Assembly (NCBI GenBank): GCA_009843785.1
Contig: VYCT01000339.1
Span: forward strand, 4,228-68,227
Source of the DNA: Candidatus Poribacteria bacterium
Lineage (GTDB): Bacteria > Poribacteria > WGA-4E > WGA-3G
DNA: 64,000 nucleotides
Direction: 5' to 3'
Position 1 is the stretch's first letter, and the number at the start of each line of letters is the position of its first letter. This document shows, piece by piece, positions 1,766 to 64,000 of this stretch. The notes beneath the pieces were generated by a model, which saw nothing but the letters and a program-made list of their open reading frames with translations, ran no database searches and was not told where the DNA came from. Made by a program: the position numbers and the translations under genes.

Positions 1766-1797
1766 ATTAGAACTTGGGCAGTTCGCGGAGGTGACGA

Positions 1798-2556: not shown

Positions 2557-2626
2557 ATACACGGCGAAGCAGCAATCAGAAAATGTTTCTAAGTAGCTGC
2601 CGGATTATAAGGAGGTATTTATTGAT

Positions 2627-4557: not shown

Positions 4558-4591
4558 CGGCAACGGCGATAGCATTGAGAGGAGAATTATT

Positions 4592-5575: not shown

Positions 5576-5598
5576 ATACTGCATTATAGGCGGAATTT

Positions 5599-6612: not shown

Positions 6613-6641
6613 CTGCCTCGTTATAGGAGGGATTTGTTAAG

Positions 6642-8657: not shown

Positions 8658-9680
8658 ATGAAACATACTTTTCTTTATATAATGTTAGGGGTCACCTTGC
8701 TGGTCAGTAATGTCCTGCTTGTTAGCAATAGCCAGGCAGATAGGACCGGGACAATCTCTTTTGCTTCCTACATCCGAAGCCCTGACCTCTTTCTCATAGA
8801 TAGCACAGGTAAGAATCTTCGAGAACTCACAACCGATGATAGAAATAAGCGTTCACCGACCTGGTCGCCGGACAGACGTTTTTTTGCCTATCAATCCAAA
8901 GACGATAAGGGTCTTGAGATCTATGTGATGGATGTCGAAAGCAAGACATCCCGCCAATTGACAAATCATCCCGGTAGGGACCTGTCGCCTGTGTGGTCCC
9001 CGAATGGCAAATGGATCGCTTTTGTGTCTGACCGAGCCGGTGATCTGGATATCTACAGAATTGATGTAGACGGTTCAAACTTAAAGCGGTTGACAAAACG
9101 TGGAGACAACCAAAATCCCGCTTGGTCACCAAATAGTCAGTGGATCGTCTATGATTCCTATCAAGGCGGAGATCATCGTCCAGGCGGCGTTCCGGGAAGA
9201 CATTTCCTCTATGTAATGAACGCTAATGGGGCAAGATCAAAGCAACTCTTAGAAGATCTAAACATATCCGGATGCACTTGGTCACCTGATGGAAAGCATA
9301 TTGCTTTTGCTTCCGGGAATATAGGCGGTGATGGCGTGAATATCCACATCATTGATGCCAATGGAAATAACCGCCGCACGCTAACCAGAGTGGGTCCAAA
9401 TGCGACAGCGAGAGATCCAGCGTGGTCGCCTGATGGCGAATGGATTGCCTATTTTTTCGTGCGCTTGCCAGTATTGAATCCTGGTCAAGCAATTCCAATC
9501 AATCAGGCTTTTCAAAACAATGTCATCAGTGTCATAAATACTGACGGTAAAGACGCAGAACAACCGCTTGAGGCAACACGCAGACTGTCGACCGGTCCTG
9601 TGTGGGTACCAGAGGTTTTCTTCCCAGTTTCACCGCAACCGCAATCATTACCTACGCAGTGGGGGCACCTAAAAAAGTAG
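8658..9680 (+). CDS. TolB-like PD40 beta-propeller protein, a divergent paralog.
   Basis: Signal peptide and PD40 repeats (WSPDRRFFAY, WSPNGKWIAF and others). The tail is FFPVSPQPQSLPTQWGHLKK. Confidence 0.7.
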   Translation: MKHTFLYIMLGVTLLVSNVLLVSNSQADRTGTISFASYIRSPDLFLIDSTGKNLRELTTDDRNKRSPTWSPDRRFFAYQSKDDKGLEIYVMDVESKTSRQLTNHPGRDLSPVWSPNGKWIAFVSDRAGDLDIYRIDVDGSNLKRLTKRGDNQNPAWSPNSQWIVYDSYQGGDHRPGGVPGRHFLYVMNANGARSKQLLEDLNISGCTWSPDGKHIAFASGNIGGDGVNIHIIDANGNNRRTLTRVGPNATARDPAWSPDGEWIAYFFVRLPVLNPGQAIPINQAFQNNVISVINTDGKDAEQPLEATRRLSTGPVWVPEVFFPVSPQPQSLPTQWGHLKK

Positions 9681-13141: not shown

Positions 13142-14770
13142 ATGAAAAAAATAAGCCTTTCAATTTTAACCCTACTCTCCATTTTCACTTTTACTTTACC
13201 TTTTGCCGCTGCCGAAGAGTACTTCCATACTCGGACGCTCAGCGGGCATAGAATTGCTGTCTCTGCAGTGGCATTCAAAGACGATAGCACACTTGTCAGT
13301 GTTGGGACCGATAGTGCCCTTCGCTTTTGGAATCTTGACATGGGGGCACAACACTGGCAGACCGAAGTCGGTCTCTTCTTAATCTCTGACATTGCAATCT
13401 CATCGCATGACTCGCGTTTTGTCGTTTATGCCGGCGGACTCTTTTTCCGCCCTTATATTGGGATGTCCTACACAGATGACGGAGACATAAGAGGTTACCT
13501 CGTGGGACCTACAAACACTGTCAATACGCTATCCTTTAAACCCGGGAGTTTCATCCTTGCCAGCGGGAGCAACGACGACACAATCCGTATCTGGGATTTA
13601 ACATGGGACGCATGGAAAAGTCGACCCGTTCGGACACTGCGGGGGCATGCGAATGATGTCGAGTCGGTTGCGTGGAGTCCTGATGGAACACTGCTCGCCA
13701 GTGGCAGTAGAGACCGGACCGTCCGCTTGTGGAACCCAGATAACGGCACCAATACTGCTATATTTCGCGGACATACGAATACTGTAAACTCAGTTGCGTG
13801 GAGTCCTGATGGAACGCTGTTCGCGAGTGCAAGCAACGATGACACAATCCGTATTTGGGACCCAACCAACACGGATGCCCCACTGCACGTCTTGGAGGGG
13901 CATACCGGGAACGTCAATACGTTGGCATTCCATCCAACCGAGGCAATTCTTGCCAGTGGCAGTAGCGATGATACAATCCGCTTATGGGACTCCACCACTG
14001 GTCTCCACAAAGCCACGCTGAAAGGGCATACCGGTGGTGTTAATACAATAGCGTGGAACTCTGATGGGTCACTTCTTGCGAGTGGCAGTAATGACGACAC
14101 AATCCGCTTGTGGGAGCCACTCGCAGCGGTTGATATAACAGGGGACGGTAGTGTCACATATCTTGACATTATTGAAGTAGGGGAGAACTACGGAAAAACT
14201 GTCGTAAATGGAGCAAACCCACGCGCAGATGTCAACAAAGATGGTATCGTTAATATTGAGGACCTCATTGTTGTTGCTAAGGCAGTGGATTCCCAAGCAC
14301 CCGTAGATTCCCAAGCGGCACCTATGCTTGCACAGCATCCACACGATTTCTCCTTCACCGCGAAAGATGTCCAGCAGTGGATCCAAGACGCACAGGATGT
14401 TGGTGCGAATCCACAGACGATTGCTATCTTAGAACGCTTTTTAGCCGTTGGGACACGGATGGCACAACCAACACCCGAAAAAACAGTTCTCTTGGCGAAC
14501 TACCCCAACCCCTTCAATCCAGAGACCTGGATACCCTATCAGTTGGCACAACCAGCGGAGGTCGCTGTCTTCATTCATACTGCGAACGGTGCTTTGGTCC
14601 GGACGCTGCCATTGGGCGAAATGCCTTCAGGTATCTATCAGAGTAGAGCCCGTGCTGCCTATTGGGATGGTAAGAATGCTCACGGAGAGCCAGTCGCAAG
14701 TGGTGTCTATTTCTATACGCTCAAAGCAGGACAATTTACTGCGACGCGTAAGATGTTGATCCAGAAGTAA
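13142..14770 (+). CDS. Secreted WD40-repeat protein with a dockerin-like pair and a C-terminal T9SS/FlgD-Ig-like sorting domain.
   Basis: Signal peptide. At least six canonical WD40 units (GH..V.S.AWSPDG..LAS.S.D.T.R.W). Dockerin-like calcium-binding repeats (ITGDGSVTYLD...DVNKDGIVNIEDLIVV). The C-terminus is LANYPNPFNPETWIPY...YWDGKN..GEPVASGVYFYTL.AGQFTATRKMLIQK. Confidence 0.75.
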   Translation: MKKISLSILTLLSIFTFTLPFAAAEEYFHTRTLSGHRIAVSAVAFKDDSTLVSVGTDSALRFWNLDMGAQHWQTEVGLFLISDIAISSHDSRFVVYAGGLFFRPYIGMSYTDDGDIRGYLVGPTNTVNTLSFKPGSFILASGSNDDTIRIWDLTWDAWKSRPVRTLRGHANDVESVAWSPDGTLLASGSRDRTVRLWNPDNGTNTAIFRGHTNTVNSVAWSPDGTLFASASNDDTIRIWDPTNTDAPLHVLEGHTGNVNTLAFHPTEAILASGSSDDTIRLWDSTTGLHKATLKGHTGGVNTIAWNSDGSLLASGSNDDTIRLWEPLAAVDITGDGSVTYLDIIEVGENYGKTVVNGANPRADVNKDGIVNIEDLIVVAKAVDSQAPVDSQAAPMLAQHPHDFSFTAKDVQQWIQDAQDVGANPQTIAILERFLAVGTRMAQPTPEKTVLLANYPNPFNPETWIPYQLAQPAEVAVFIHTANGALVRTLPLGEMPSGIYQSRARAAYWDGKNAHGEPVASGVYFYTLKAGQFTATRKMLIQK

Positions 14771-31389: not shown

Positions 31390-33666
31390 TTACTTGATTA
31401 TCAAGAGTTTCCGCGTGGCGGTGAAGTCGCCTGCGGTGAGGGTGTAGAAATAGACACCACTCGCGACAGGTTCACCGTGTCGGTTTTTACCATCCCAATA
31501 CGCGGCACGCCCGCGGCTTTGATAAACACCGGCAGGCTGATGCCCTAACGTCAACGTCCGCACCACGCTGCCGCGGACATCGTAGATCGTCAAGGTTACT
31601 TTCGCATCGGTTGCCAAGTGATACGGTATCCACGTTTCAGGGTTGAACGGGTTCGGATAGTTCGGTAACAGTGCCGATGTCTCCGGTATCGCCTTCATTT
31701 CTGTGAGCAGCTGCAGCAGCTCTTCAAGGACTACCGGTATTCCTTTTTCAAGGCGCACATCGCTGGTCGCGAGACGCTTCGCATCGGTCAGCGCAGCAGT
31801 AACATTGCGGTATGTGAGGTTCCCACGCGATAAAGCGTTCGGGGCTCCTGCGACAGCTTCAATCTCCGCTGCCTGTTCTGCGACCACCGCCAACACGGCT
31901 TCTATCTCTTCTAGCGAAAACCCTTGGGTAGTGCTGTTGGCAGCATCAATCCCTTGAGCGACCGCGGTAAGGTCTAAGATGTCAACCACCGCATCGGCAT
32001 TGACATCTGCGGGGAGGCTGATCCCTACTGGCACTTGCGTTCCATAAAAGAGTGCGACAATCGCAAGGTCTATGGTGTTCACCTGCCCATCGTCGTTGAC
32101 ATCCAAAGGAGAGCCAGGGGGCGGAACAGGAGGTTCAACCGGGGGCTCTTGACCTATCACGGTAATGGTAAAGTTCAAAGAATCAGAATTATTCCCGGCA
32201 TCCATAGTGGTGTACGTCGCGTTGGTGGTGCCGACTGTAGTAGGCGTGCCGGTAAGTAACCGCGTTGCTGCATTAAAGTCGAGCCCGTTGGGTATTGGCG
32301 AGAGCGTGTAGCGATACGGGGCGATGCCGCCTGTTGCCGCAGGCAACGCCAGTGGCGTGATAAGCGTGTCAACCGGGAACGTCTGATCCGCAATCGTAGG
32401 TGGATTGAAGATCAGCGGTGGCGTGGTTGACGGCTGAACGGTAACTTTGACACCCGTGGAGTAGTTATTGTTCGTAAAGGCTTCATTGGCAACAAGGTCG
32501 ACACCTGCACCGTAGTAGGATGTGCCGGCGGAAGGTGCAGTGACCGTAAAACTCACTTCGCTTGTAGCAGCAGGTGCCAGCGCATCCATAGGTCTTGAAC
32601 CGAGCTCGATATCAAAGGGTGTAATGCTGTTATCAAAAGACTGATAAAACCACAAGTTTGTTGGGGACGCAGCGACACCACCCCTGTTTCTGACGATAAC
32701 CGACAGCGTAAAACTTGCACCAGGAATGGGGGCATCCGTGTTCACCCAGACGGCTTCAACAACCAAATCGGATGCAGTTTCGGCAGGTGCAGGTAAATGC
32801 TGCTCGATTTCAGGCAGAATATGCGACATCAAACTGCCGGCATTAAAAAGCGGCTCACCGGTAAACCGATTGGTCCAAGCACTATGATGAATCCCGATAA
32901 CGCCTGTTCCATCACGCAGGAAAACCGGCGAACCGGAGGCACCACCCTCAGAGTCTGCAAGGTAAGCGAATATGAAGGGCAACTCGGCGGTGAAAGCCGG
33001 TGGCAAATCCACGATTTCCGTGTTGTTCCGGACAATCTCTTTCGACCTACCAGCAGGATGCGAAATCAGTTTCACACTCTGATCTGAATCCACACGGGTC
33101 GTGGTATCCAGTTCGAGCCATCCATAAGTATTCCCGAGGGGTCTATCCAGTCTGAGAAGGGCGTAGTCCTTAAGTTCATCCATCTGTACAATGCCAGACA
33201 CACGCGCTGTGAGACCACCGAGCGTCTCATCCACCTCTTCCTCCTGATAATAATCCATGAAAATGGCGGCACCTTCAAGCGGGAGGAGACCGTCCTCGTC
33301 ATGAATACAGTGGTGGTTCGTCATGAACAGATCGGGACCTACGAGGAAACCGGTACAAATAAAACCCCGCAGACCGTCCCGACTCGGGATAAAAAACAAG
33401 CCGACTTTGCGTCCGAGAATGTAGTCCCGACTGTTTGGCGGGAAGTCCCGCATCTTTTCAAAATCATTGGTCCCGAATATTATATTGGGTACTCTTTGAA
33501 ATTCGGCGTTGCCTTGTATATACGCTGCGCCATCAGCGGTTGGGAATTCAAAGTCGCCTTCAAGTAAGCCTTCTGGAATAGCAAACCCGTTTGTGACACC
33601 AAGTGAAACCAAACCTAAAATTACGATTAAAAACAGAATGTGGGATTTTCTAAACTTTCTAAGCAC
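31390..33666 (-). CDS. Secreted trypsin-like (S1, V8/glutamyl-endopeptidase-like) serine protease with Ig-like domains, a dockerin repeat pair and a T9SS/FlgD-Ig-like C-terminal domain.
   Basis: Signal peptide. A His block (TGFLVGPDLFMTNHHC) and a Ser block (GGASGSPVF). Dockerin repeats (DVNDDGQVNTIDLAIV..., DVNADAVVDILDLTAV). The C-terminus is LLPNYPNPFNPETWIPY...YWDGKNRHGEPVASGVYFYTLTAGDFTATRKLLIIK. Confidence 0.75.
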   Translation of the reverse strand: MLRKFRKSHILFLIVILGLVSLGVTNGFAIPEGLLEGDFEFPTADGAAYIQGNAEFQRVPNIIFGTNDFEKMRDFPPNSRDYILGRKVGLFFIPSRDGLRGFICTGFLVGPDLFMTNHHCIHDEDGLLPLEGAAIFMDYYQEEEVDETLGGLTARVSGIVQMDELKDYALLRLDRPLGNTYGWLELDTTTRVDSDQSVKLISHPAGRSKEIVRNNTEIVDLPPAFTAELPFIFAYLADSEGGASGSPVFLRDGTGVIGIHHSAWTNRFTGEPLFNAGSLMSHILPEIEQHLPAPAETASDLVVEAVWVNTDAPIPGASFTLSVIVRNRGGVAASPTNLWFYQSFDNSITPFDIELGSRPMDALAPAATSEVSFTVTAPSAGTSYYGAGVDLVANEAFTNNNYSTGVKVTVQPSTTPPLIFNPPTIADQTFPVDTLITPLALPAATGGIAPYRYTLSPIPNGLDFNAATRLLTGTPTTVGTTNATYTTMDAGNNSDSLNFTITVIGQEPPVEPPVPPPGSPLDVNDDGQVNTIDLAIVALFYGTQVPVGISLPADVNADAVVDILDLTAVAQGIDAANSTTQGFSLEEIEAVLAVVAEQAAEIEAVAGAPNALSRGNLTYRNVTAALTDAKRLATSDVRLEKGIPVVLEELLQLLTEMKAIPETSALLPNYPNPFNPETWIPYHLATDAKVTLTIYDVRGSVVRTLTLGHQPAGVYQSRGRAAYWDGKNRHGEPVASGVYFYTLTAGDFTATRKLLIIK

Positions 33667-34126
33667 AGTTAACTCCTTACTTTAGTAAATATAAGCTGCT
33701 ATAAGCTGCTATAAGCTGCATAAATTTTGTGTTTTTACGCTGTGAGTTTGCATCGTCTCTCTGTTGCATCGTTTCCGATTCCACTCGGTGGTGGTAGAGA
33801 CCTGCCTTGCGGCAGGGTGGAATTCTCTACCAACGATGCTGTTCATAGCATAGCACACGTTAAAATAAAATCAAGTTTTTTTTGATTTTACTATTGAAAC
33901 CGAACCGACGCAGCTAACGTTTATTGAAGTGTTGCAGGTTTGAAGTCCTGCAACATTGCAATCTATCAATCTTGAAATCCTGCAGAGAAGTAACCAGTGG
34001 CCAGTAACCAGTTAAAGAGTGCCTCGCAGTGAGAGTTGTGGCAATAACTAAAATGTTCCCGACACAAGGTCTTAACTGGTAACTCGTAACTGGAAACTGG
34101 TAACTCTAAAAAAGGAAATTTAAAAT

Positions 34127-34747
34127 ATGAAGACGTTAGCTGTTCTTTCCCGGAAAGGTGGCACCGGCAAGACGACCCTCGCGATCCATCTCGCCGTCGC
34201 CGCTGAACGCGCCGGACATACGACTATTCTTATCGATCTCGACCCACAAGCCTCCGCGGCGAAATGGAACGACCATCGCGAAGGCGATACACCTTTTGTC
34301 GTGACGGCGCCCCCATCACGCTTAACAGAAGTTTTGAACAAAGCCGCGGACGGCGGCGCAACCCTCGCAATCTTGGATACCGCACCGCACACCGAGATCG
34401 CCGCACTGGATGCCGCAAGCGTCGCAGAGATGGCGTTGATCCCATGCAAACCGGCACTCATCGACCTACAGGCGATTACCTCAACCATCAATGTGATCCG
34501 TCTCGCGAACGTGCCGGCACGGATCGTTTTCAACGCTGTCCCCGCCAGAGGTGACCGTGTCGATCAGGCGCGTGAAGCCGTCAAAGTCTTTGATGTGCCG
34601 TGCGCGCCGTGTGAAGTCGGGAATCGAATCGCTTTTAGCGATTCCTATAACGCCGGACTCACCGCACAGGAATACGAACCGCGCGGAAAAGCGAGTCGTG
34701 AAATCAGAGAACTTTATACTTACATATCAACCGAAATGGGGGTATAA
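34127..34747 (+). CDS. parA: ParA/Soj-family partition ATPase (small type Ib).
   Basis: Deviant Walker A motif KGGTGKTT, an IDLDPQ block, and a 206-aa length. Confidence 0.8.
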   Translation: MKTLAVLSRKGGTGKTTLAIHLAVAAERAGHTTILIDLDPQASAAKWNDHREGDTPFVVTAPPSRLTEVLNKAADGGATLAILDTAPHTEIAALDAASVAEMALIPCKPALIDLQAITSTINVIRLANVPARIVFNAVPARGDRVDQAREAVKVFDVPCAPCEVGNRIAFSDSYNAGLTAQEYEPRGKASREIRELYTYISTEMGV

Positions 34748-34868
34748 TAGGAGGAGTTACCAGTTACCAGTTACCAGTTACAAAAAGAGATGTGTGTTTG
34801 CTTGGGTGTTTCCCTGAGGTTCATCTGAAACCTCTTTAACTGGCCACTGGATACTGGATACTGATAAT

Positions 34869-35135
34869 ATGGCAAAGAAACCGAATCTCGCAGAAGCTTT
34901 TAAAGTCGATGAAAACGAGTTACAACCGAAACCTGAACTCCAAGTCGTTGAACCTCAGCCGAAGCCTACCGCGAAAGCGGCAGCGAAAAAGAAGCATATC
35001 GGCGGCTATTTTCCACCCGATGTCTACACACAGATGAAAATCCTCTGTGCTGAGACGGGTATGACGACCCAGGAGATATTGACGGAGGGCCTCAACGCCG
35101 TCTTTCGGATGCACGATAAACCACCGATAGCGTGA
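34869..35135 (+). CDS. ParG-like ribbon-helix-helix centromere-binding protein, partner of ParA.
   Basis: A basic, flexible, Lys- and Pro-rich N-terminus. The C-terminal RHH reads KHIGGYFPPDVYTQMKILCAETGMTTQEILTEGLNAVF. It sits directly downstream of parA. Confidence 0.55.
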   Translation: MAKKPNLAEAFKVDENELQPKPELQVVEPQPKPTAKAAAKKKHIGGYFPPDVYTQMKILCAETGMTTQEILTEGLNAVFRMHDKPPIA

Positions 35136-35159
35136 AGTAGTTATCAGTACGATTTTTTT

Positions 35160-35300
35160 TCAAAAAATTTTTCAGTTTGCCTCGCAGTGAGAGTACTCGG
35201 TTAAGAGAGACGCTCTATATCAAGTTTCCCTCTTAACCGATAACCGATAACCGATAACTGACAACTATTCCTCCGACAACCGATAACCGATAACCATTAA
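35160..35300. repeat. Array of 7-bp direct repeats (CCGATAA x3, CTGACAA, CCGACAA, CCGATAA x2, CCATTAA) downstream of the par genes; candidate centromere or operator.
   Basis: Tandem heptamers are visible directly in the sequence. The preceding core 'GCCTCGCAGTGAGAG' also occurs at 34020. Confidence 0.5.
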
Positions 35301-35302
35301 CT

Positions 35303-35503
35303 ATGATTTCTGAAACTTATTGGACAATTTTAGAGCATGCGAACCGCGAGTTAGCGTTGCGTTTTGAGAAACTCAAGAAAGCGCGCGCCACCGGTGATCC
35401 GGAAGGCATCAAACAGGCGCGGATGGAGTATCTACGGGCGTTGCAGGTACTCTATACCGATGCGCAGAGTGCCGTCTCGCAGCCGATGCGTTTTAAGTCG
35501 TAA
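35303..35503 (+). CDS. Hypothetical small protein.
   Basis: ORF with an ATG directly after the repeat array. No domain recognised. Confidence 0.35.
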   Translation: MISETYWTILEHANRELALRFEKLKKARATGDPEGIKQARMEYLRALQVLYTDAQSAVSQPMRFKS

Positions 35504-35784
35504 CAGGCTGCTCCGACTCGTCGGCTGATAGTTCAAAAAAGGGTTGTCAATTTTTCGCAAAACTGATACACTCAATAAATCCAGTTTTGGGTGGCACTAC
35601 GAAGCGTACCGCTCGGTATGTCTGCCACCCTCCCACCTTTGTAGGGAAATATAACTGGAGACTGGAAAATCCTTAAACAATCTTTGTATAATTTACACTA
35701 TAGATTCCATCTACAATATGTTGGACTCTACACCACTGAATCTTGCTTGAAATAGAATCAGCACGAGAGCAAAAGGAGGTTCAC

Positions 35785-36081
35785 ATGACTGACAACACAC
35801 GCAACGAAATTGCGCGTCACAGTTTAGAAATACTCAAGTTGGCTGTACTGGAGGTATTATATCAACACACCGGACCGCATAAGGGTTGCATGAGCGCGGC
35901 TGACATTCGCGAAAAACTTAAAATACAGCGTCCAAAATACGCAGCGGGCAGCGTCAACGATCTGTTTCACGGCACGCTTTCATATTTGAAAGATGACAAG
36001 TATGCCGACCATATTTACAGGGACGCATGGCGGATCACAGAGCTGGGAATATCGGTTATTGAAAAGGAAAACGCGTTATGA
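35785..36081 (+). CDS. Hypothetical protein, possibly winged-helix.
   Basis: ORF with RBS AAGGAGG upstream of MTDNTRNE. Confidence 0.4.
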   Translation: MTDNTRNEIARHSLEILKLAVLEVLYQHTGPHKGCMSAADIREKLKIQRPKYAAGSVNDLFHGTLSYLKDDKYADHIYRDAWRITELGISVIEKENAL

Positions 36082-36114
36082 TGTAAACTGGATATCCTTA
36101 AAGTGATATAGGAG

Positions 36115-37413
36115 ATGTATGCGTTTATGGAAACTGTGATGAAAAAGGCATTTGACCGAGATACGGGCCGATACTACATGGTAGCAATGCCAGGCCCCGC
36201 AACCGTTAGACAGAATATCCTTGATCTTGAGTATCCTGAAGACGGAATCAGCGTTAAGGATGCGTCAATTATATTAGCCGAGAAGCTTAACCTTTCTGAC
36301 GAACAGAAAAATGCAAGGAATAGTTCCAACCTCAATGTGTTTCGTTACAGTGTGGTTGCCCCACAATTTAAATGGCTCTTAGAGGCGGGTGAACTCGAAC
36401 AACCCGGAGGCCCCAGAACCCTCTACTTTCCAGCTATAAGCAGCTCGGATTCATCAGATAGTACGCTTCGTGAAACCTCTCCTGATCCTGAACCTGAATG
36501 GGCATCTTCTCCAGAATCGGTGAAGAGAACAGCGGTGGACCCTGATACAAACGAAGAATACGAGGTACCCTTACCACCAACTTCTGTTGTCAAAGAAGCA
36601 CTTCTTGATTTTGACTATCCAGCGAGTGGAATTCAGATTAAGGATATTGCAGAGGCATTGGCTGACCAATTAGAACTCACCGATAAGCAGAGAGAGGCCA
36701 AGAATACATACGGTCTGGTTTGGCGATTTCATGTAAATATCACAGCAAATGACTTAGTAAACTCGGGGCAACTTTTGAAACTAAGGCGTGGATGGATTAT
36801 CAATCCTGAACAGCCGGACGTGGAGACTCCAGAAGATGCTGATGGTGACTCCGCATTTTCTGATGGAGATACGCCGTCTCCCGAAGCTGTCATTGATCGG
36901 AATTATCGAAAACACCGAGACGGATTGAAGGCAGAGCTTCGAGAAAAAATTATGGCCAGCGATCCAGGTTTTTTTGAGAAACTGGTTCTTTGCCTTCTCG
37001 TTGAGATGGGGTATGGTCGTTCGCGGGCAGATGCTGAAGTCTTAGGACGTAGTGGTGATGGGGGTATTGACGGTATTATTAAAGAAGATGAACTCGGACT
37101 TTCTCTGATTTATATTCAGGCAAAGCGGCAGGAGGGCAATGTATCAGTCTCTCAAGTCCGAGATTTTACTGGAGCATTAGATTGTAAAGGTGCCCAGAAA
37201 GGGATATTCATCACAACTTCAAATTTTACTCAGCCTACTAAAGATTTTGTAGAAGAAGTACGCTCTAGGAGGATTATCCTTATCGATGGCGATCAACTTG
37301 TGGAGCGGATGATTGACCATGACTTAGGTGTTTCCTTAGGGATCTTTTACCAGCTCAGAGAGGTGGATCCGGGTTACTTTTCTATAGATGATGAGGAAAT
37401 AAATGATGAATGA
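36115..37413 (+). CDS. Mrr-family type IV (modification-dependent) restriction endonuclease with two N-terminal Mrr_N winged-helix domains.
   Basis: The C-terminal Mrr_cat block reads GYGRSRADAEVLGRSGDGGIDGIIKEDELGLSLIYIQAKRQEGNVSVSQVRDFTGAL...GIFITTSNF (PD-(D/E)xK with D...QAK). There are two ~90-aa N-terminal repeats (DLEYPEDGISVKD... and DFDYPASGIQIKD...). Confidence 0.75.
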   Translation: MYAFMETVMKKAFDRDTGRYYMVAMPGPATVRQNILDLEYPEDGISVKDASIILAEKLNLSDEQKNARNSSNLNVFRYSVVAPQFKWLLEAGELEQPGGPRTLYFPAISSSDSSDSTLRETSPDPEPEWASSPESVKRTAVDPDTNEEYEVPLPPTSVVKEALLDFDYPASGIQIKDIAEALADQLELTDKQREAKNTYGLVWRFHVNITANDLVNSGQLLKLRRGWIINPEQPDVETPEDADGDSAFSDGDTPSPEAVIDRNYRKHRDGLKAELREKIMASDPGFFEKLVLCLLVEMGYGRSRADAEVLGRSGDGGIDGIIKEDELGLSLIYIQAKRQEGNVSVSQVRDFTGALDCKGAQKGIFITTSNFTQPTKDFVEEVRSRRIILIDGDQLVERMIDHDLGVSLGIFYQLREVDPGYFSIDDEEINDE

Positions 37414-37454
37414 AACAACAACCCTGTTTGTATGAATCATAGGCGTAATTTTTA

Positions 37455-38117
37455 ATGAAGATAATACCAGACAGATTTGTATACCCGACACGCGATTTTA
37501 ATGTAGTAGGTTTTGAAATCAGTCCGACTGAAGATAAGGAACGTATTGACCAGGCTTTTGTGGAAGCATCCGAACACGGAGGTGACCCTCGCGACACGTC
37601 CGGAAAAATGCGGACTAAAGATGAACGCTTGAGAAAACGCTATTTGGGTGCTTTAACTGAGAATTTACTTGTTGAATATTTGCAGTCTGAACTTGGGGAT
37701 GGTGTGTGTGTCGTAAAAAAACCATTTGAGACGTATGAAAAACATGTAGACATAGAAATACATTGGGATGAAAATATGACACCTCTTGAGGTCAGGTCGT
37801 CATTTTACTATGCAACTTACCTACGTAATGTTATCGGTACACATTTCAAAACCCTTGGTCCCTACAGTACAGCCCGTAAACCTGGTGAGACTGTGAAGGG
37901 CTTTTATTTGCAAGGGGTACTTAGGCAGCAGTTTAACATTGAAGATGACCATACACTTTACTTTACTGGCGGTGCTCCAGGTGATTGGTTTTTAGAAAAA
38001 GGAGTCGTAAGTACTCTTAAACAAGACAGTGCTGAGTATTTGGTTTTGCCTATGCTTGAAGGCATGGATGCTACGGAGATTGTGAATGCGATAAAGAGTA
38101 TCATCCATGGAGTTTAA
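37455..38117 (+). CDS. Hypothetical protein, a candidate restriction endonuclease partner of the adjacent methyltransferase.
   Basis: Its stop is 2 nt before the methyltransferase start (operon-like). It is AT-rich. A possible D..E block (HVDIEIHWDE) is present. No firm motif. Confidence 0.3.
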   Translation: MKIIPDRFVYPTRDFNVVGFEISPTEDKERIDQAFVEASEHGGDPRDTSGKMRTKDERLRKRYLGALTENLLVEYLQSELGDGVCVVKKPFETYEKHVDIEIHWDENMTPLEVRSSFYYATYLRNVIGTHFKTLGPYSTARKPGETVKGFYLQGVLRQQFNIEDDHTLYFTGGAPGDWFLEKGVVSTLKQDSAEYLVLPMLEGMDATEIVNAIKSIIHGV

Positions 38118-38119
38118 AA

Positions 38120-39604
38120 ATGAATGTTGAAAACAGAACTATTTTTGAAGGTGATAATCTACATATCCTGCGAGGGTTTGATTCTGAGACGATAGACCTT
38201 ATTTATTTGGATCCGCCCTTTAATTCCAATCGGACGTATGAAGCTCCGATCGGAAGCGAGGCTGCTGGTGCAGCGTTCAAAGACGCTTGGACATTAAGTG
38301 ATTTGGATAATGCTTGGCACGGCGAACTTGCTGAGCATGAACCTGCACTCTATTCTTCTATTAGTGCTGCTGAATTTAGCCATAGCAAGTCTATGAAAGC
38401 TTACCTTATCATGATGGGCATCCGAATGCTGGAACTGCGACGTGTGCTGAAACCAGATGGAGGCATCTATCTGCACTGTGATTCGACAGCAAGCCACTAT
38501 CTGAAAACGATGATGGATAGTATTTTCGGAAGAAATAACTTTAGATCTGAAATTACATGGAAGCGCACAACATCTACGCAAAAAGGATCTCAGCATCGTA
38601 GTATGCGGTGGGGCAATAACGCTGATGTACTCTTGTTTTATGCGATGTCTCGATCTACGTCATTGTGTCCTGAAAGGGAACTCACAGAATCTGAAATCTT
38701 GGAAAAATTCAAACATATTGACGAAAATGGTCAGCGATATTATGACGACTCAGCTCATATTTGGCGAACCCCAAATATGGGAGAGCGTCCAAACCTTTGT
38801 TATGAATGGCGTGGCTTTGTGAACCCACATATAGCTGGATGGAGGTTGAGCAGAGAGCGTTTGGAAGAAGAATATCAAAAAGGGAACATCGTTATTCGTC
38901 CTGATGGGAAATTGGAACGTCGGAAGTATCTTAAAGACTACAAAGGTGCTTCCTATGGTAATATCTGGGATGATATACTACCGCCCGGGCAAGGCGAACG
39001 CACTGGTTACCCAACTCAAAAGCCTCTCGAACTTTTAAAGCGTATTATCAGGGCGAGCAGTAAACCTAATGATATTGTTCTTGATCCATTCTGTGGGTGT
39101 GCAACAACTTGTATCGCAGCGGAAGCCGAGCAGAGACAATGGATCGGTATTGATCTAAGCCCCAAAGCTGTAGAACTTGTAAAATTTCGTCTGGAGCACG
39201 AATTGAAACTTACGGAAGATGGGGATATGCTCGGGGACAAGGTTATACACCGGACGGACATACCTACTCGCTTGGTGCCAGAAGAACCGCGTCAGATACA
39301 TGCTGATACCTTGTTCGGTATTCAAGACGTAGTGGGACAGGCTTTATCGCAAGTTGAACTCCGGCAGTATCGATCATATAAGCATACATTGTATGGACTT
39401 CAGGAAGGCAAATGCAATGGGTGTGAAGTGCTGTTCCCGTTTAGGAACCTGACAATTGACCATATCATTCCGCGCTCCAGAGGTGGCACTGATGACCCTG
39501 ATAATCTCCAGTTGTTGTGTGCCGCGTGCAACTCCACGAAAGGTGATCGGACGCAAGCGTATTTGATACAGGCGTTAAAAGAACAGGGCGTTCGTCGCGA
39601 GTGA
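38120..39604 (+). CDS. DNA methyltransferase (beta-class N6-adenine/N4-cytosine, DPPF motif) fused to a C-terminal HNH endonuclease domain.
   Basis: Motif IV LIYLDPPFNSNRTYEA sits near the N-terminus. Motif I LDPFCGCATTCIAAE sits near residue 315. The C-terminus reads CNGCEVLF...LTIDHIIPRSRGGTDDPDNLQLLCAACNSTKGDR, an HNH with C-x2-C ... C-x2-C. Confidence 0.75.
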   Translation: MNVENRTIFEGDNLHILRGFDSETIDLIYLDPPFNSNRTYEAPIGSEAAGAAFKDAWTLSDLDNAWHGELAEHEPALYSSISAAEFSHSKSMKAYLIMMGIRMLELRRVLKPDGGIYLHCDSTASHYLKTMMDSIFGRNNFRSEITWKRTTSTQKGSQHRSMRWGNNADVLLFYAMSRSTSLCPERELTESEILEKFKHIDENGQRYYDDSAHIWRTPNMGERPNLCYEWRGFVNPHIAGWRLSRERLEEEYQKGNIVIRPDGKLERRKYLKDYKGASYGNIWDDILPPGQGERTGYPTQKPLELLKRIIRASSKPNDIVLDPFCGCATTCIAAEAEQRQWIGIDLSPKAVELVKFRLEHELKLTEDGDMLGDKVIHRTDIPTRLVPEEPRQIHADTLFGIQDVVGQALSQVELRQYRSYKHTLYGLQEGKCNGCEVLFPFRNLTIDHIIPRSRGGTDDPDNLQLLCAACNSTKGDRTQAYLIQALKEQGVRRE

Positions 39605-39779
39605 AGATGAAGTGCCAACGTTTATTCAGACCGAATATTAGCAAAGTTAAGACAAGTGTTGTTGGTCGCATTCAACGGGTCTCAAAGCACCTAACGCCGA
39701 GCAGTGTGTCAGAATCTTGGTTTAGAGGGTGGTCTGAATTTCCGATGGCAGTACAAACAAATTCTGGAGGATTTAGTTT

Positions 39780-40763
39780 ATGGAAATTACGTTAAAGGCA
39801 TTGCCAGACCAAGAGACTGTCCCATACGTGCAGGCTATTACCAATAATCAGCAATGCAACTCTTGTAACCAAACTCTTACGTTTGACGAAAGCTACAGAA
39901 TAATTGATAACAGCGTTTTATTCTATAGGGAACCTTATTTCACCTGCGGATGTAAGCAATTTATTTGGGTCTCGTTTCTTCAATCCGATTCAGAGTATAT
40001 CAGTGACCCCAGAGAACTCTCTAATCTAATCAATCCTGAAACACACTCAAAAGCGAAGGTTGTAAAAGTTTCACGTGCGGATATTAGATTTCTTAAAGAA
40101 GACCTAAAAAGCAATAATATCCAACCAATAGACAATTACAATTCACTATACAAATCAGTAATCACCCTTTCTATGCAGATTCAACTCACCTTTATATTGA
40201 AGCCTGAAGCATTTTTTCATGTAGATTTTTGGGAAACAGAAAGGACCGGACTGTCAGATTTCATAAATAATATTATTCGTAATTCAGGCAATTTATTTTG
40301 GTTGGAAGTTAAACGCCTTCTACTGATAGAGAGTACCAGATTAATCGGGAACTTAGTTGACAAGAGAACTTCAGATACTTTCAATCTTAATGTGCTAAAA
40401 AAGAAATACCCTAATATTTCCTCACTTAAAAAGCTATCAGACGAATTCGATTGCAAAAAAGGAAAATATTATAAAATTCGCCGGTTTAGGAATAAATGGT
40501 TATCCCATACAGAAGCAAAATATAAGACAGCCAGCGAAGATGAACCTAATCAAAAATTATTGGCGGAATGCTTAGAGGATATAATAGTATCCGTTAACGA
40601 TATAAGCCAAGCCATGGGGCTTACATTCACAATAGAACATATTCAACTCGATACACGCACAGAGCAACGCGATTCCCTGTTATCAGTGTTAGGAAAAATC
40701 AATTATGCCTTGGACACCGAAAGAAGAGAGGGCGAGAACAATGCCGGTACTAACAATCAATGA
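39780..40763 (+). CDS. Hypothetical AT-rich protein with N-terminal Cys motifs and a possible C-terminal HEPN-like R-x5-H motif; a candidate Abi-type defense gene.
   Basis: CNSCNQ and CGCKQ zinc-ribbon-like pairs are present. 'RFRNKWLSH' fits Rx4-6H. It has the lowest GC in the window and sits between the restriction-modification genes and the integrase. Confidence 0.35.
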   Translation: MEITLKALPDQETVPYVQAITNNQQCNSCNQTLTFDESYRIIDNSVLFYREPYFTCGCKQFIWVSFLQSDSEYISDPRELSNLINPETHSKAKVVKVSRADIRFLKEDLKSNNIQPIDNYNSLYKSVITLSMQIQLTFILKPEAFFHVDFWETERTGLSDFINNIIRNSGNLFWLEVKRLLLIESTRLIGNLVDKRTSDTFNLNVLKKKYPNISSLKKLSDEFDCKKGKYYKIRRFRNKWLSHTEAKYKTASEDEPNQKLLAECLEDIIVSVNDISQAMGLTFTIEHIQLDTRTEQRDSLLSVLGKINYALDTERREGENNAGTNNQ

Positions 40764-40875
40764 CATAGAAGTTGGCATGAAATTTAGGTGCCTATCGCCA
40801 GTTCACGTCCGTCCTTATCCGCGTTGACGAGAGTTGTTGTGGTTTTCAACCTCTTACAGAGAAGGATGATGCTAT

Positions 40876-41619
40876 ATGAAAGGCACAAGACCCCTCGATA
40901 ACGACGAGATCAGACAAGTTGCCGCATGCTTTGACGGCAGCTTTGAAATCCGTAACCGCGGGCTTTTCATGCTCGGCGTAAGTACTGGCGGACGTATCTC
41001 CGAATTGCTCAGCCTACGCGTCGGGGATGTCTACCAAAACAAGCGTCCCGTGACCGATCTCCTTTTCGATAAATCCGTCGTCAAGGGGGGTGAGGTTTCC
41101 AGAGCTGTACCCGTCAACAGCGATGGTCGACGCGCCATAGAAGACCTGATCGCTTGGCACGGCGAGCGATACCAGAACGCCGACAAAGATCGTCCGCTAT
41201 TCCCATCGAGGAATGGGCAGGGCGAGAAACGGATGTCGCGCCGAACCGCACACGATGTTTTGAAACGTGCTTTTGAGGCAGCAGGGCTGAACGGTCATCT
41301 CGCGACGCACAGTTTGCGAAAGAGTTTCGCTCAACGGCTCTATGATCGCACCGGTGATATTTTTGCCGTGCAAGAGATGTTAGGGCATAAATCTGTCACG
41401 ACGACCCAGAAATACTTGGGCGTGAATTACGCGAACATCAAGGAAGCCGTAGAGGAGATGGCGGTTGCCAGTGAGCTGCACATTAGCGGACTTTTGGGCA
41501 GTGCAATCAAAAAAGAGAAGGACGAAACCCTGTTCCTCGAACTCGCACTCCGCGGGTACGACCTCTCCAATTTGCGAGATGACAACGAAACTACAGCCGA
41601 AATCGTCAGGATCAGTTAA
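40876..41619 (+). CDS. Tyrosine-type site-specific recombinase (integrase), a short form with the catalytic domain only.
   Basis: Box I reads RNRGLFMLGVSTGGRISELLSLRVGDV. Box II reads HSLRKSFAQRLYDRTGDIFAVQEMLGHKSVTTTQKYL (R..H..R..Y). At 247 aa it lacks the usual N-terminal core-binding domain. Confidence 0.8.
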   Translation: MKGTRPLDNDEIRQVAACFDGSFEIRNRGLFMLGVSTGGRISELLSLRVGDVYQNKRPVTDLLFDKSVVKGGEVSRAVPVNSDGRRAIEDLIAWHGERYQNADKDRPLFPSRNGQGEKRMSRRTAHDVLKRAFEAAGLNGHLATHSLRKSFAQRLYDRTGDIFAVQEMLGHKSVTTTQKYLGVNYANIKEAVEEMAVASELHISGLLGSAIKKEKDETLFLELALRGYDLSNLRDDNETTAEIVRIS

Positions 41620-42265
41620 ACCGTCCAATCAACCCCATAGAAGACCCACCCACAATCCCTGCAGTGCGCGCCGATATTAAGGTGCTTGTCTCTCGTCCGA
41701 CGGTTGCTTTGACTTGACCGCTACGGCAGGCGAAATACGGCATGGCGAAGACATGCAGAGATGAAAAATACGAAAGTCGCTACGCTCCATTTTTCACCAC
41801 TGCCGCCAGCCAATACCGCGCTGCCTCCGCTACAGTTTCTGCTCGTGCAACGTCCCAGTAAACGCCGAAGTGCGCATTTTTTAAAGATAAGGCACGCCCT
41901 GCACCTTTCGCAATTTTCGCAGCCTGTCGCAGCATTTCGCAGCTTGCGTCGGTAAGGACAGATATTATTCAACCTCCAACAGAAAACAAAAACAAAGAGT
42001 TGTAATCCGAGCGGTTTTCTGGGTTTTCTGTCCGCAAGCAAGCGAAAGGATAGGGAAGAGTTCAAATAACGCTTGCTTGCTGCGTTTAGATAAATTGAAG
42101 TTGCTAATTTGGGCAGGATAGAAAGCACAGGGCTTTCACCGCGGTGCGCGTTTGGGTATCAGATCAGCGCAAGCCTAAGCGGAATTTAGGCATAAACCGG
42201 TCGTTTGGGCAAAAAAAATGCGCATTCTTGCCGAAAAAAACGCAAATTTTTTAGCAATTTTATTT

Positions 42266-42294
42266 GACTTTTATTGGTTTATGTGGTATAATAT
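42266..42294 (+). promoter_or_regulatory. Strong sigma-70-like promoter (TTGACT, 17-nt spacer, TATAAT) driving the early-gene block that starts at 42414.
   Basis: 'ttgacttttattggtttatgtggtataat' is followed by ~110 nt of leader and then the RBS GAGGT with ATG at 42414. Confidence 0.5.
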
Positions 42295-42413
42295 ATATAA
42301 GAAAAACGGCAGGGGTTCACCGCTAAATGATTCCCCTACCGACTAAATCCACGACTTGCGTCGCTTGCTTTAATTATACCTCGCAATGCGGCGAAAGTCA
42401 AACTTTATGAGGT

Positions 42414-42791
42414 ATGATGATGATAGAAATCACATTGCACGGGCGAAACGGTGTCCGTACAATCCAAATCAAACCCCGCGGTTTCCCAACGCGCCATGTG
42501 CGTACAAGACAGGTGGCCGCGCCTGTTTCCCCAATTCCCCCGCCTCCCGAACCGCCACCGGTACCAGCTTGCCCAGTGCTCGCAGCATTCCACACGCTGC
42601 AGCGCGTCGTCGGTGGCAACGGCTACTTCATCCTTGATGAAATCTTTAGGGTCGTCCGTCAAGAGGGTGCCTCGCTCTCCCGCGATGCGCTCCTCGAAAC
42701 GCTCCGGTCTTACTACCGAGACGGCAAAATCGCGTTCCGGCAGGGCTACGGCTCGCAACTCCAGTTTGCGCTGAAGGGGGAAACAGTATGA
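42414..42791 (+). CDS. Hypothetical protein, Pro-rich.
   Basis: ORF with an RBS, downstream of the promoter. Confidence 0.4.
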   Translation: MMMIEITLHGRNGVRTIQIKPRGFPTRHVRTRQVAAPVSPIPPPPEPPPVPACPVLAAFHTLQRVVGGNGYFILDEIFRVVRQEGASLSRDALLETLRSYYRDGKIAFRQGYGSQLQFALKGETV

Positions 42792-43084
42792 AAAAAACGT
42801 TGTCCCCGGATGCCCTCGCTGAACTGGCGCGGGTATACCTCAAATCCGCTTGGATCGCAGCCCCGCAATGGGACTTGCTGAAAAAGCGATGGGTCCGTAT
42901 TTCACCACACGGCACTGCAACCTCGAGTTGCGGTGTCCCGGACTTCACCGGCATCCCGAAAACCGATGCTGACATCAAACCACATCAACGGTTGATGTGG
43001 CGACGGTGCCAACGGTGCCATCTCATCCGTCCGTGGGGTGGTTGCTATCGGAATTCAACGCCCTATGTAGAACCCTGGAGGTAA
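42788..43084 (+). CDS. Hypothetical protein.
   Basis: ORF overlapping the previous stop by 4 nt (operon-like). Confidence 0.4.
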   Translation: MKKTLSPDALAELARVYLKSAWIAAPQWDLLKKRWVRISPHGTATSSCGVPDFTGIPKTDADIKPHQRLMWRRCQRCHLIRPWGGCYRNSTPYVEPWR

Positions 43085-43390
43085 ATGATGAAGCATACAC
43101 CGAATCCTCGGCACCGGTACCATCGGAAGTGCCAGTGCGCTCCGTGCCGGAAAGTCCGGTATGTCCTGATGGGTCTTGAACCCCGCGAGCGGATGTCCGT
43201 AAACGAACTGCGAATCCTTCTGAACGCGTGCCACGATTACGGCACCGTTCATGAAGGCGATTTCCCAACCCTTGAAGCACTTGTCCAAGCACAGGCGGAG
43301 TGCCGGCTGCGCGCAACGGATATGCACAGCTCCGGTGAAATCCTGATTATCGGTCGGGATGCCTGCTACGTCACCTTCAAGGTTGACTAA
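43085..43390 (+). CDS. Hypothetical protein with a Cys/His cluster.
   Basis: The ORF starts at the upstream stop. HRKCQCAPCRK may bind zinc. Confidence 0.4.
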   Translation: MMKHTPNPRHRYHRKCQCAPCRKVRYVLMGLEPRERMSVNELRILLNACHDYGTVHEGDFPTLEALVQAQAECRLRATDMHSSGEILIIGRDACYVTFKVD

Positions 43391-43497
43391 ATAGTCACCA
43401 GTTACCAGTGGCTGTAGGGGCGAGGTAACCTCGCCCTTACAAGAAGTTTCTTTTCTGGTAACTGGTAACTGGAAACTGGAAACTATAAAAAGGAGAT

Positions 43498-44862: not shown

Positions 44863-45038
44863 GCTTCGTCATTTGACGAAGGGATGAGTTATAGACTGTA
44901 GCGCGTAATGAAGCAGATCGCTTATGGGGTTTTTGCTGGGGTGTTTCTTCAAGTACGCCGCAAAATGGAGCGCGGATCTACGGAGAGGCACTTCATTCAT
45001 CAAACTGACTTGACCGAACCGCAAGGAAAGTTAAAAAA

Positions 45039-60644: not shown

Positions 60645-60656
60645 TTTTTGTTCCTT

Positions 60657-60779
60657 CGGAGACGGTTTAGATACTTTTTAGAGACGGTTTAGATACCCTT
60701 CGGAGACGGTTTAGATACCCTTCGGAGACGGTTTAGATACTTTTTAGAGACGGTTTAGATACTTTTCAGATATTATCTG
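60657..60779. repeat. Five tandem 22-23-bp direct repeats (C/A)GGAGACGGTTTAGATAC(TTTTT/CCTT), followed by the palindrome CAGATA-T-TATCTG.
   Basis: Seen directly in the sequence. Candidate TerS recognition (pac/cosB-like) repeats, or iterons/operators. Confidence 0.8.
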
Positions 60780-60819
60780 GGCATCGTCAAATGACGAAGC
60801 GAATCTTGCTACTCATAAT

Positions 60820-63634: not shown

Positions 63635-63783
63635 GCGGCGGGGCAAATGATACGTGGCGAGATCGTTGGTGGGCTTTACGTCTGAATTCAAAACCTGTAG
63701 CCCGTAATGAAATGGAGGGCGGCTCTACGGAGATGCACTTCATTTATCAAATTGACTTGACCGAACCGCAAGGAAAATTAAAA

Positions 63784-64000
63784 ATGAAAGAACGCATCTC
63801 TTCAAATGTACCGAGACAGACGAAGCTACGCGTCCAGAAAGCCGCGAAGGCGTTAGGGCTTTCAGAATCCAAATTCATCGAGCAAGCCGTCGCAACCGAT
63901 CTCGATAAACTCAATATACGGATGCAAACGCACGAGGCACGCAGACAACGCGACTGTTTTAAAGCGAAATACAAAGAGGCCCAGGAGCACCTCACCGCGG
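63784..64000 (+). CDS. Ribbon-helix-helix (CopG/ParD-like) protein, 3'-partial at the window end.
   Basis: MKERISSNVPRQTKLRVQKAAKALGLSESKFIEQAV fits a beta-strand followed by helices. It is preceded by the same ~75-bp element as ORF 45039. Confidence 0.45.
   Translation, partial: MKERISSNVPRQTKLRVQKAAKALGLSESKFIEQAVATDLDKLNIRMQTHEARRQRDCFKAKYKEAQEHLTA

Follow-up and report, generated by a model that had tools for sequence, protein, structure and literature searches.

A low-GC defence cargo in a Poribacteria prophage and its protein X, a candidate accessory nuclease of methyltransferase-guided restriction enzymes

Defence-gene hotspots occur in prophages and their satellites, and the P2/P4 cargo loci of Escherichia coli are examples of these. 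Extra nuclease genes can also reside inside restriction-modification (R-M) loci: PrrC, a HEPN RNase with an NTPase sensor domain, is an anticodon nuclease embedded in the type Ic R-M locus EcoprrI. Type III R-M systems (EcoP15I-like, Mod2Res1) are canonically made up of two genes. In the HEPN survey, where PrrC is also discussed, the RNase site is given as Rx4-6H with a polar residue after the R, and AbiU2 is described as keeping this motif and as occurring in R-M operons (PMC3710099). The locus described here lies in a 64,000-nt stretch of DNA from Candidatus Poribacteria bacterium (assembly GCA_009843785.1, contig VYCT01000339.1, positions 4,228 to 68,227 of the forward strand; the whole stretch is called the window below), in which a low-GC block of genes stands within a prophage, one of them encoding a 220-aa protein that is referred to as X. 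It is fairly probable that the block is a cargo of separately mobile defence modules, inserted between a small phage gene (orf66) and the integrase gene, and that X acts as an accessory nuclease of methyltransferase-guided R-M enzymes. The coordinates of all features are collected in Table 1.

Up to 33.7 kb the window consists of Candidatus Poribacteria chromosomal DNA, with heme-biosynthesis genes and a protease carrying a type IX secretion system (T9SS) tail. The DNA that follows, and that surrounds the block, is the backbone of a temperate phage of the tailed kind: the genes for ParA and an RHH protein lie at 34.1–35.1 kb, that for the small terminase at 44.4 kb, and those for the major head protein, the head protease, the portal and the large terminase at 52.7–60.0 kb. 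Two sister phages, which together with the window make up a comparison of three phages only and barely sample the diversity of the hotspot, have this backbone without the block. The first (L031) is a 41.7-kb IMG/VR contig that is collinear with the window prophage at 83–92% nucleotide identity. It has the order ParA, RHH, orf66 and then, ∼10 nt on, the integrase, with nothing in between (the orf66 block ends at 1432 and the integrase match begins at 1443). Homology between the two extends up to the stop codon of orf66 (35,503) and is then lost until the integrase ATG (40,876). The second sister phage (L033) has the same orf66-integrase junction. On the 3' side of the integrase, L031 carries ∼1.3 kb of extra DNA and L033 has ∼6.7 kb of unrelated cargo, comprising an APRT-like gene, a membrane protein, a TPR protein, an internally deleted remnant of a methyltransferase-HNH fusion (MTase-HNH) and a homolog of orf112, a small gene that is also present in the block. 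The last ∼100 bp of the L033 integrase are duplicated 6.7 kb downstream and bracket this cargo (6,405–7,154 and 13,878–13,978), which looks like an insertion into the 3' end of the integrase. The remnant, at 9,101–9,383, joins residues 1–29 to residues 430–494 and looks like decay of the same MTase-HNH module that is found in the window. The integrase thus has a variable cargo site on each side.

An earlier note on this DNA, made from the sequence alone, had proposed a horizontally acquired defence hotspot within a mobile element. This idea holds, since the window, L031 and L033 differ in cargo around one integrase: the backbone is that of a phage, the block is missing from both sister phages, and L033 has other cargo. 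The island as a whole is an ordinary prophage defence hotspot, which is expected biology. Like the P2/P4-type hotspots, it occupies a fixed site in a conserved temperate-phage backbone, relatives have other cargo or none, and the window cargo is of low GC and built of defence modules. It differs from them in that the host is an uncultivated sponge symbiont, and in that cargo can lie on either side of the integrase, which is short.

All five plus-strand open reading frames (ORFs) listed for the block in the earlier note were found at the coordinates given there. The note had described five AT-rich genes at 36,115–41,619; a discrete low-GC stretch is indeed present, but the true unit is 35,504–40,875, with orf112 included and the integrase excluded. 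Four of the five genes are AT-rich. The integrase, with 53.4% GC and a G+C content at third codon positions (GC3) of 0.60, is unlike the island in composition and is a conserved backbone gene of the sister phages (84% amino-acid identity in L031 and 81% in L033), and for these reasons it was placed outside. From 36,115 to 40,763 the GC content is 42.4%, the minimum for that length in the window (mean 48.7%, sd 2.1). Mean GC3 is 0.40 in the island genes, as compared with 0.57 in the phage backbone (21 genes; Mann-Whitney p = 3e-5) and 0.49 in the chromosome (23 genes; p = 6e-4). Searches for attachment (att)-like direct repeats or a target-site duplication at the island junctions, for tRNA genes and Rfam families across the window, and for a near-identical plasmid match to the window region gave nothing.

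The block is a mosaic of defence modules that travel separately. Its Mrr segment (∼36,080–37,390) is 80–85% identical at the nucleotide level to two loci found elsewhere, L001 and L010, and the segment with X and MTase-HNH (37,440–39,610) is likewise 80–85% identical to L009 and L010. X by itself (37,454–38,125) has counterparts with 74% identity in L004 and L005, which are type III loci, while MTase-HNH by itself, from exactly its ATG (38,120), is 75–83% identical to L011–L014. The segment with the gene for a 327-aa HEPN-like protein (39,756–40,772) has 91% identity to L030 and 75% to L003. In L003 the homolog of this gene stands alone beside a transposase fragment, and in L030 its neighbours are a UDG gene and an enzyme resembling type ISP; neither locus has X or MTase-HNH, and L009 and L010 have X and MTase-HNH but no HEPN gene. 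The suggestion that X and the 327-aa protein are parts of one undescribed system is therefore not upheld. An end scar of an IS3-family insertion sequence separates the MTase-HNH and HEPN genes, and its homologs in L003 and L030 abut a transposase C-terminus reading ...RPHSALGYLTP(V/M)EF-stop. This ∼100-bp segment had also been considered as an attC-like site, but it folds no better than shuffled sequences (z = -0.75), and as a small antitoxin gene, which was ruled out. As it is the end of an IS3-family element (39,603–39,700), the 64-aa ORF at 39,601–39,795 is probably spurious.

What is new here is X, a member of an R-M-associated family; the Mrr enzyme, the MTase-HNH fusion and the AbiU2-type HEPN protein are of known kinds. 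Thirty-four relatives of X were found, 220–226 aa in length; nearly all of them come from metagenomes of sponges or marine samples, and all are unannotated. A scan of JGI metagenomes gave 4 further loci. X has no significant match in Pfam, NCBIfam, PADLOC or PHROGs, no relatives in IMG/VR or among GenBank phages, and no sequence-level match to PDB chains, profile search included. In the GTDB representative genomes an alignment-pattern scan was negative, and the 9 matches to a hand-made motif were all due to chance, as judged by tblastn. The earlier note had left both X and the 327-aa protein without a family. This stands for X, which matches no model, but not for the 327-aa protein, whose family matches PF18734 in 4 of 10 relatives. 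Neither of them matches any family of phage structural or early proteins, the outcome that the earlier note had named as its refutation.

An AlphaFold model of X, built from the family alignment (pLDDT 86, pTM 0.84), confidently predicts an alpha-beta-beta-beta-alpha-beta core of the PD-(D/E)XK fold. The closest solved folds are the archaeal Holliday-junction resolvase Hjc, the fusellovirus D212 nuclease and I-Ssp6803I, at a sequence identity of 10–14%. Compared with these, X has an additional N-terminal segment of ∼55 residues and additional C-terminal strands, ExR in place of ExK, and a gene context of R-M rather than recombination. In the model, E69 lies on the first core helix (55–80), D99 just ahead of the second core strand (100–104), and E112 and R114 on the third (107–117), so that the predicted placement of E69, D99 and E112 is the canonical core layout except for the change of K to R. 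The position of the motif lysine is taken by an invariant arginine (E112-V-R114), and invariant lysines are found elsewhere in the protein (K142, K148). About 16 residues are invariant from bacteria to archaea, including the full acidic triad and K142/E145/K148; E69, H97, D99, E112, R114, K142, E145 and K148 are all kept in archaeal relatives that are only 24–32% identical.

In all loci X is adjacent to an R-M methyltransferase, and three kinds of context can be distinguished, covering Bacteria and Archaea. In the window, L009 and L010 it lies 5' of MTase-HNH; the flanks are different in each of these, so that X and MTase-HNH form a unit. The translational coupling of the two genes proposed earlier was confirmed, the X stop codon (38,117) and the methyltransferase ATG (38,120) being separated by a 2-nt gap with GGAG upstream. 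In the second context X is found between mod and res (L001, L002, L004–L008, L016/L017), overlapping the start of res by 11–32 nt, or, in L018, beside mod-res but transcribed divergently. The Mod and Res proteins are those of bona fide type III systems (PADLOC 8e-183 and 6e-241), and they retain their nuclease, visible as PF19778 or, in L018, as a PDF...VETKG motif. The L018 Res (310–2,838, minus strand, 842 aa) is of another lineage of Res proteins: it does not match PF19778 but has a clear PDF...VETKG near the C-terminus. L001 has two tandem X paralogs between mod and res (4,164–4,841 and 4,927–5,601), which are 72% identical, a duplication that suggests possible heterodimers or continuing diversification. 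In the third context, relatives with 24–32% identity (E about 4e-10) occur on plasmids of Methanocaldococcus jannaschii and Thermococcus barophilus, where they follow, or overlap the end of, MmeI/Eco57I-type enzymes of 1,178–1,199 aa. These archaeal partners share a conserved N-terminal PD(Y)...E-A-E rather than the usual D...ExK (L019 3,455–4,354 and L020 3,237–4,136). The nuclease site may thus be a variant one or a weakened one, which may be of relevance to the presence of X. A role of X as substitute for a missing partner nuclease was ruled out, the partners having kept their nuclease motifs.

X does not follow the methyltransferases that it accompanies. X of the window and X of L004 are 70% identical, while their partner methyltransferases are 23% identical. 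Among the type III loci the identities are 72–86% for Mod (62–88% when its recognition domain is taken in) and 70–88% for Res, compared with 37–59% for X, the divergence of X being even along its length and the recognition region of Mod not being hypervariable. One family of X occurs with unrelated methyltransferases and does not track the Mod recognition domain, which speaks against an X that shares the site of its methyltransferase and co-varies with it, although this evidence is indirect, as the recognition sites were not determined. The ratio of nonsynonymous to synonymous substitutions (dN/dS) is 0.21–0.40 for X and 0.05–0.15 for its partners; within X it is 0.41–0.45 in the N-terminal 60 residues and 0.15–0.17 in the core. 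X is therefore a functional gene under purifying selection, and one that is fast-evolving and moves among R-M systems whose target recognition sits in the methyltransferase.

In the earlier note X was a candidate restriction endonuclease. On a type II reading, X would be an ordinary sequence-specific enzyme that is cognate to MTase-HNH, and elsewhere a second endonuclease sharing the protection given by the resident methyltransferase. A 220-aa gene directly 5' of a methyltransferase, and translationally coupled to it, fits this well, and X evolves faster than the methyltransferase, as is typical of type II endonucleases. Other MTase-HNH loci have differing unannotated genes upstream, which is the usual pattern of a variable endonuclease with a conserved methyltransferase. 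Yet X remains 45–70% identical (24–32% in the archaeal relatives) despite partners from three unrelated lineages, the beta-class fusion, the type III Mod (23% identical to the fusion) and the gamma-class MmeI-like enzymes, and a cognate endonuclease would require one site common to all of them. Its divergence is independent of the Mod recognition domain, the order Mod-X-Res with an 11–32 nt overlap of the Res start suggests a subunit rather than a hitch-hiker, and the motif has R in place of K. Because the family is embedded in complete type III operons, X is probably not a simple type II endonuclease; we regard this reading, the main rival, as unlikely, and the occurrence of X with unrelated methyltransferases is the chief argument against it. 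The identity of 70% between X proteins whose methyltransferases are 23% identical, together with divergence that does not track the Mod recognition domain, argues against a sequence specificity of X itself.

X might also stand outside the cutting machinery, either as a latent toxic nuclease that guards the R-M system, being kept inactive by the R-M complex until restriction is blocked by a phage, as in the case of PrrC, or as a dead adaptor or regulator that times restriction relative to methylation. PrrC-like guards in R-M loci are an established precedent, and in its logic the Mod-X-Res arrangement comes closest to PrrC/EcoprrI, where likewise a complete R-M operon has an extra nuclease gene inserted between its modification gene and its restriction gene. 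The embedding of X in three kinds of otherwise complete R-M operons that already hold nucleases would be accounted for, as would its tandem duplication in L001; the raised dN/dS, mainly in the N-terminal 60 residues, fits an arms-race interface, and the change from K to R is compatible with loss of standard catalysis. Against a scaffold, the ∼16 residues that are invariant from bacteria to archaea argue for an active enzyme, and against a guard, X is a small PD-(D/E)XK-fold protein that is unrelated to PrrC and has no PrrC-like sensor or NTPase domain, while toxicity is without evidence. A role of this kind is rated as quite doubtful, and the accessory nuclease remains the preferred reading of X.

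The methyltransferase that X adjoins in the window matches PF01555 with 148 bits, and its DPPF motif (residues 31–34) precedes FCGCATT at residue 324, which is the beta-class order of motifs. The C-terminal HNH domain is intact (residues 432–485; PF01844 55.7 bits, PF14279 55.6 bits, 5e-15), with CxxC...DH...N...CxxC visible. The earlier note had annotated the fusion, the Mrr enzyme and the R-x5-H motif of the HEPN-like protein (R237...H243) correctly. The fusion family is abundant and has elsewhere unrelated upstream genes or none; those upstream of it in L011 and L013 show no relationship to X (hhalign probability < 1%). Nothing specific was found on MTase-HNH fusions in the literature searched. 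Like Mod, the window methyltransferase is of the beta class, and its alignment with type III Mod, at 23% identity, takes in all of the catalytic and recognition region; X relatives moreover lie inside bona fide mod-res operons. A Res-like ORF (superfamily 2 helicase plus endonuclease) was sought in 33–45 kb of the window and none was present, so that the window module is not a type III system: it differs in lacking the Res helicase-nuclease, with the HNH domain fused to the methyltransferase in the role of nuclease. Canonical type III systems also differ in having two genes, and in the literature searched nothing specific was found on a gene between mod and res, on the arrangement Mod-X-Res or on the X family.

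The location of this module in a phage raises the question of whether the block serves phage DNA metabolism, with the methyltransferase shielding phage DNA from host restriction and the HNH domain aiding the cutting by terminase. HNH nucleases adjoining terminases and orphan phage methyltransferases are both common (PMC3592412). The block is missing from two otherwise collinear sister phages, which shows it to be dispensable for the phage life cycle, and it lies ∼19 kb from the large terminase gene. The close homologs of MTase-HNH are located in chromosomal defence islands and not in phages, a search of IMG/VR having returned none, and in the block the MTase module is flanked by the Mrr and HEPN genes. 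An explanation by phage metabolism is accordingly very improbable, and defence remains the preferred function of the cargo.

The Mrr enzyme was described earlier as having a double Mrr_N domain. It is an Mrr by PF04471 (Mrr_cat, 116.5 bits for a cut-off of 21) and PADLOC, with the catalytic residues D319...Q335-A-K337 present in the translation, and its N-terminal domain is duplicated (residues ∼6–80 and ∼134–207, 40% identity over 75 residues, E = 4e-18); Mrr_N itself (PF14338) reaches only 25.3 bits, below the gathering score of 29.5, and does so in the second copy only. E. coli Mrr likewise has Mrr_cat, with D...QxK, and it has an N-terminal DNA-reading domain of the Mrr_N type, the predicted counterpart of which is tandemly duplicated in the window enzyme. 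Orthologs with the double N-domain and 72–77% identity occur in L010 (6,256–7,635) and L001 (10,424–11,601). A double-N-domain Mrr is thus found within a few kb of X-bearing R-M modules in three loci, which include both kinds of bacterial context, and a ScoMcrA-like type IV gene lies near X in L004. This proximity could be a functional pairing or could merely reflect shared defence islands. The small protein of orf112 has no BLASTP match to Mrr.

The 327-aa protein is rare: among 5.8 billion clusters it has only 18 close relatives, and a profile search through 1.84 billion proteins yielded 8 representative clusters. No relatives were found in plasmid and phage collections. Its N-terminal CxxC...CxC and the R237-N-x4-H243 motif persist in family members that are 22–30% identical, R237 being near-invariant. 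The best of the four PF18734 (HEPN_AbiU2) matches in the family has E = 7.3e-9; the window protein itself has no significant match in Pfam, NCBIfam, PADLOC or PHROGs beyond a sub-threshold one to HEPN_AbiU2. With the lactococcal AbiU2/PF18734 proteins it shares the Rx4-6H motif with a polar residue after the R, an all-helical C-terminal region, and a position next to an R-M operon, which the HEPN survey also gives for AbiU2 (PMC3710099). It differs in the additional N-terminal CxxC...CxC domain, which resembles a zinc ribbon, and in the rarity of its family. From these motifs we conclude that the protein is an autonomous, rare and divergent zinc-ribbon-bearing AbiU2 HEPN of a known kind, and presumably an abortive-infection RNase.

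The sequences show the insertion, the mosaic make-up, the folds and motifs, the gene contexts, the translational coupling and the purifying selection on X, whereas all biochemical activities and the contact between X and the methyltransferase are inferred. On the preferred reading, the predicted activities of the block would combine as follows. Mrr would cut modified DNA, its two N-terminal winged-helix-like domains reading the modification. The target-recognition domain of the methyltransferase would find the site, so that host DNA is methylated, and the fused HNH would cleave the unmethylated DNA of an invader. X, which tight translational coupling would cause to be produced in step with the methyltransferase, would most likely be an accessory nuclease that docks on the complex formed around the methyltransferase and lacks a sequence specificity of its own; it might, for instance, make the second-strand cut. 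Its relatives would take the role of a third subunit between Mod and Res in type III systems, and would act after MmeI-like enzymes in archaea. The zinc-ribbon HEPN RNase, judging from its family, would shut down the infected cell as a second line of defence.

Several points weigh against this scheme, chiefly the nucleases that the partners already have and the change of K to R. A second nuclease is not obviously needed, since the type III and archaeal partners carry nuclease motifs of their own, and MTase-HNH is far more abundant than X, so that X is not obligatory for MTase-HNH. The X family comprises only ∼40 sequences, mostly from sponge metagenomes, which makes the context statistics small, and the replacement of the (D/E)xK lysine by an invariant arginine leaves catalysis unproven. 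As for the HEPN protein, the window sequence scores 15.7 bits against PF18734 (E = 0.01), where the gathering score is 26.8, and its AlphaFold2 model has a pLDDT of 39.

Table 1. Features of the cargo block and of the phage backbone next to it (window coordinates)
Feature	Position	Strand	Details
ParA + RHH protein + orf66	34127–34747, 34869–35135, 35303–35503 (unit 34127..35503)	+	Pfam CbiA/ParA, Antitox_RHH
Left-hand backbone	34127..35503		collinear with L031 248–1432, 83–92% nt identity; GC3 0.55–0.60
Inserted low-GC cargo block	35504..40875	+	5,372 bp, 42.6% GC; missing from L031 and L033
Promoter-like site, left edge of island	35663..35692	+	TGGAAA-18-TATAAT, 10/12; consensus scan only
orf112, small protein within insert	35743..36081	+	faint Mrr_N match, E = 0.07; 40%-identical homolog in L033 cargo
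Mrr-type type IV restriction endonuclease, duplicated N-terminal domain	36115..37413	+	PF04471 8.7e-34; PADLOC mREase_IV 6e-50
X, 220-aa predicted PD-(D/E)XK-fold protein, undescribed R-M-associated family	37455..38117	+	
Beta-class N6/N4 DNA methyltransferase (DPPF) + C-terminal zinc-finger HNH nuclease	38120..39604	+	PF01555 3.8e-43; PADLOC MTase_II 1e-57
IS3-family end scar	39603..39700	none	between MTase-HNH and HEPN genes; 79–82% identical to HEPN-flanking segments in L030, L003
Zinc-ribbon + AbiU2-type HEPN protein, predicted abortive-infection RNase	39780..40763	+	CxxC...CxC; R237-N-K-W-L-S-H243
Short tyrosine recombinase, 247 aa, phage backbone	40876..41619	+	PF00589 4e-32, 111.8 bits, catalytic domain only
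Mostly non-coding backbone gap	41620..42413	none	794 bp; partly conserved in L031; no Rfam family

The catalytic residues of the integrase (R40, H154-S-L-R157, H181, Y190) are visible in its sequence. An N-terminal SAM-like core-binding domain is absent, the PF00589 match starting at residue 7 of 247 and leaving no room for one, and the short length is conserved in the sister phages (248–249 aa). The non-coding DNA that the earlier note had put at ∼780 bp after the integrase is present and mostly non-coding, but it measures 794 bp, is partly conserved in a sister phage and contains two promoter-like sites. These are sigma-70-like (TTGACT-17-TATAAT, 11/12) and face each other, at 42264–42292 on the plus strand and 42401–42373 on the minus strand; in arrangement they resemble a lysis-lysogeny switch region. 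For the promoter-like site at 35663..35692, where the island begins on the left, the evidence is weak, as such sites are no more numerous in this region than shuffled sequences would lead one to expect.

Many intergenic regions of the prophage (33,983–62,690) contain 3–4 tandem units of a CCAGTnn heptamer, with an inverted nnACTGG array ∼40–90 nt downstream (examples are 33994/34089, 34760/34840, 43398/43455, 43830/43873, 46879/46944, 48426/48482, 54084/54125, 54239/54292, 60966/61045 and 62652). Two-unit matches fall within 33,994–62,676 in 31 of 32 cases, compared with a shuffle expectation of 0.16 for the whole window. The arrays are also present in L031, and none occurs in 35,654–43,398 although they are typical of backbone intergenic regions. 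They may be operators, terminators or centromere-like sites of this phage group.

A 75-nt module is found at 44,963–45,037 and 63,710–63,784 (92% identity), with a partial copy at 41,709–41,737 and a copy in L031 at 169–269. It ends in AAGGAAA..TTAAAAA, which is like a ribosome-binding site, right before genes, and the L031 copy is immediately 5' of ParA. The module is more probably an element of promoter or 5'-untranslated-region type that has been repeated than an att site. That the repeat and the layout of L031 mark attL and attR was ruled out, as L031 extends ∼14 kb beyond the homolog of the window end (position 64,000), from which it also follows that the prophage continues beyond the window. 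A tandem array with an 11-nt register occupies 60,653–60,792, with units such as GGTTTAGATAC, CCTTCGGAGAC and TTTTTAGAGAC, and lies between the gene for a 216-aa protein, which adjoins the large terminase gene, and the next gene. At the left end, the gene for the trypsin-like T9SS-tailed protease and ParA are contiguous in the window (31,390–34,749) and in L033 (2,493–5,772), itself a Poribacteria contig, at 72% nucleotide identity, so that either related prophages use a common chromosomal site or the protease gene belongs to the element.

Taken further, X can be proposed, tentatively and at less than even odds, as an unrecognised conserved third component of methyltransferase-guided restriction enzymes (type III Mod-Res, MmeI-like type IIL and MTase-HNH) in Bacteria and Archaea: a small PD-(D/E)XK protein whose active site would be an unusual ExR, and which either completes double-strand cleavage from one recognition complex or is a fast-evolving guard that fires when R-M is inhibited. 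If this is true, the two-gene textbook picture of type III systems is incomplete for a whole lineage. The sister phages provide a natural pair with and without cargo, in a phylum with almost no genetics. Should X be a genuine subunit or guard, the annotation of its genes would change, which are at present called 'hypothetical' and are ignored by PADLOC-type tools, and Mod-X-Res would be a tractable three-gene model for how R-M enzymes recruit extra effectors.

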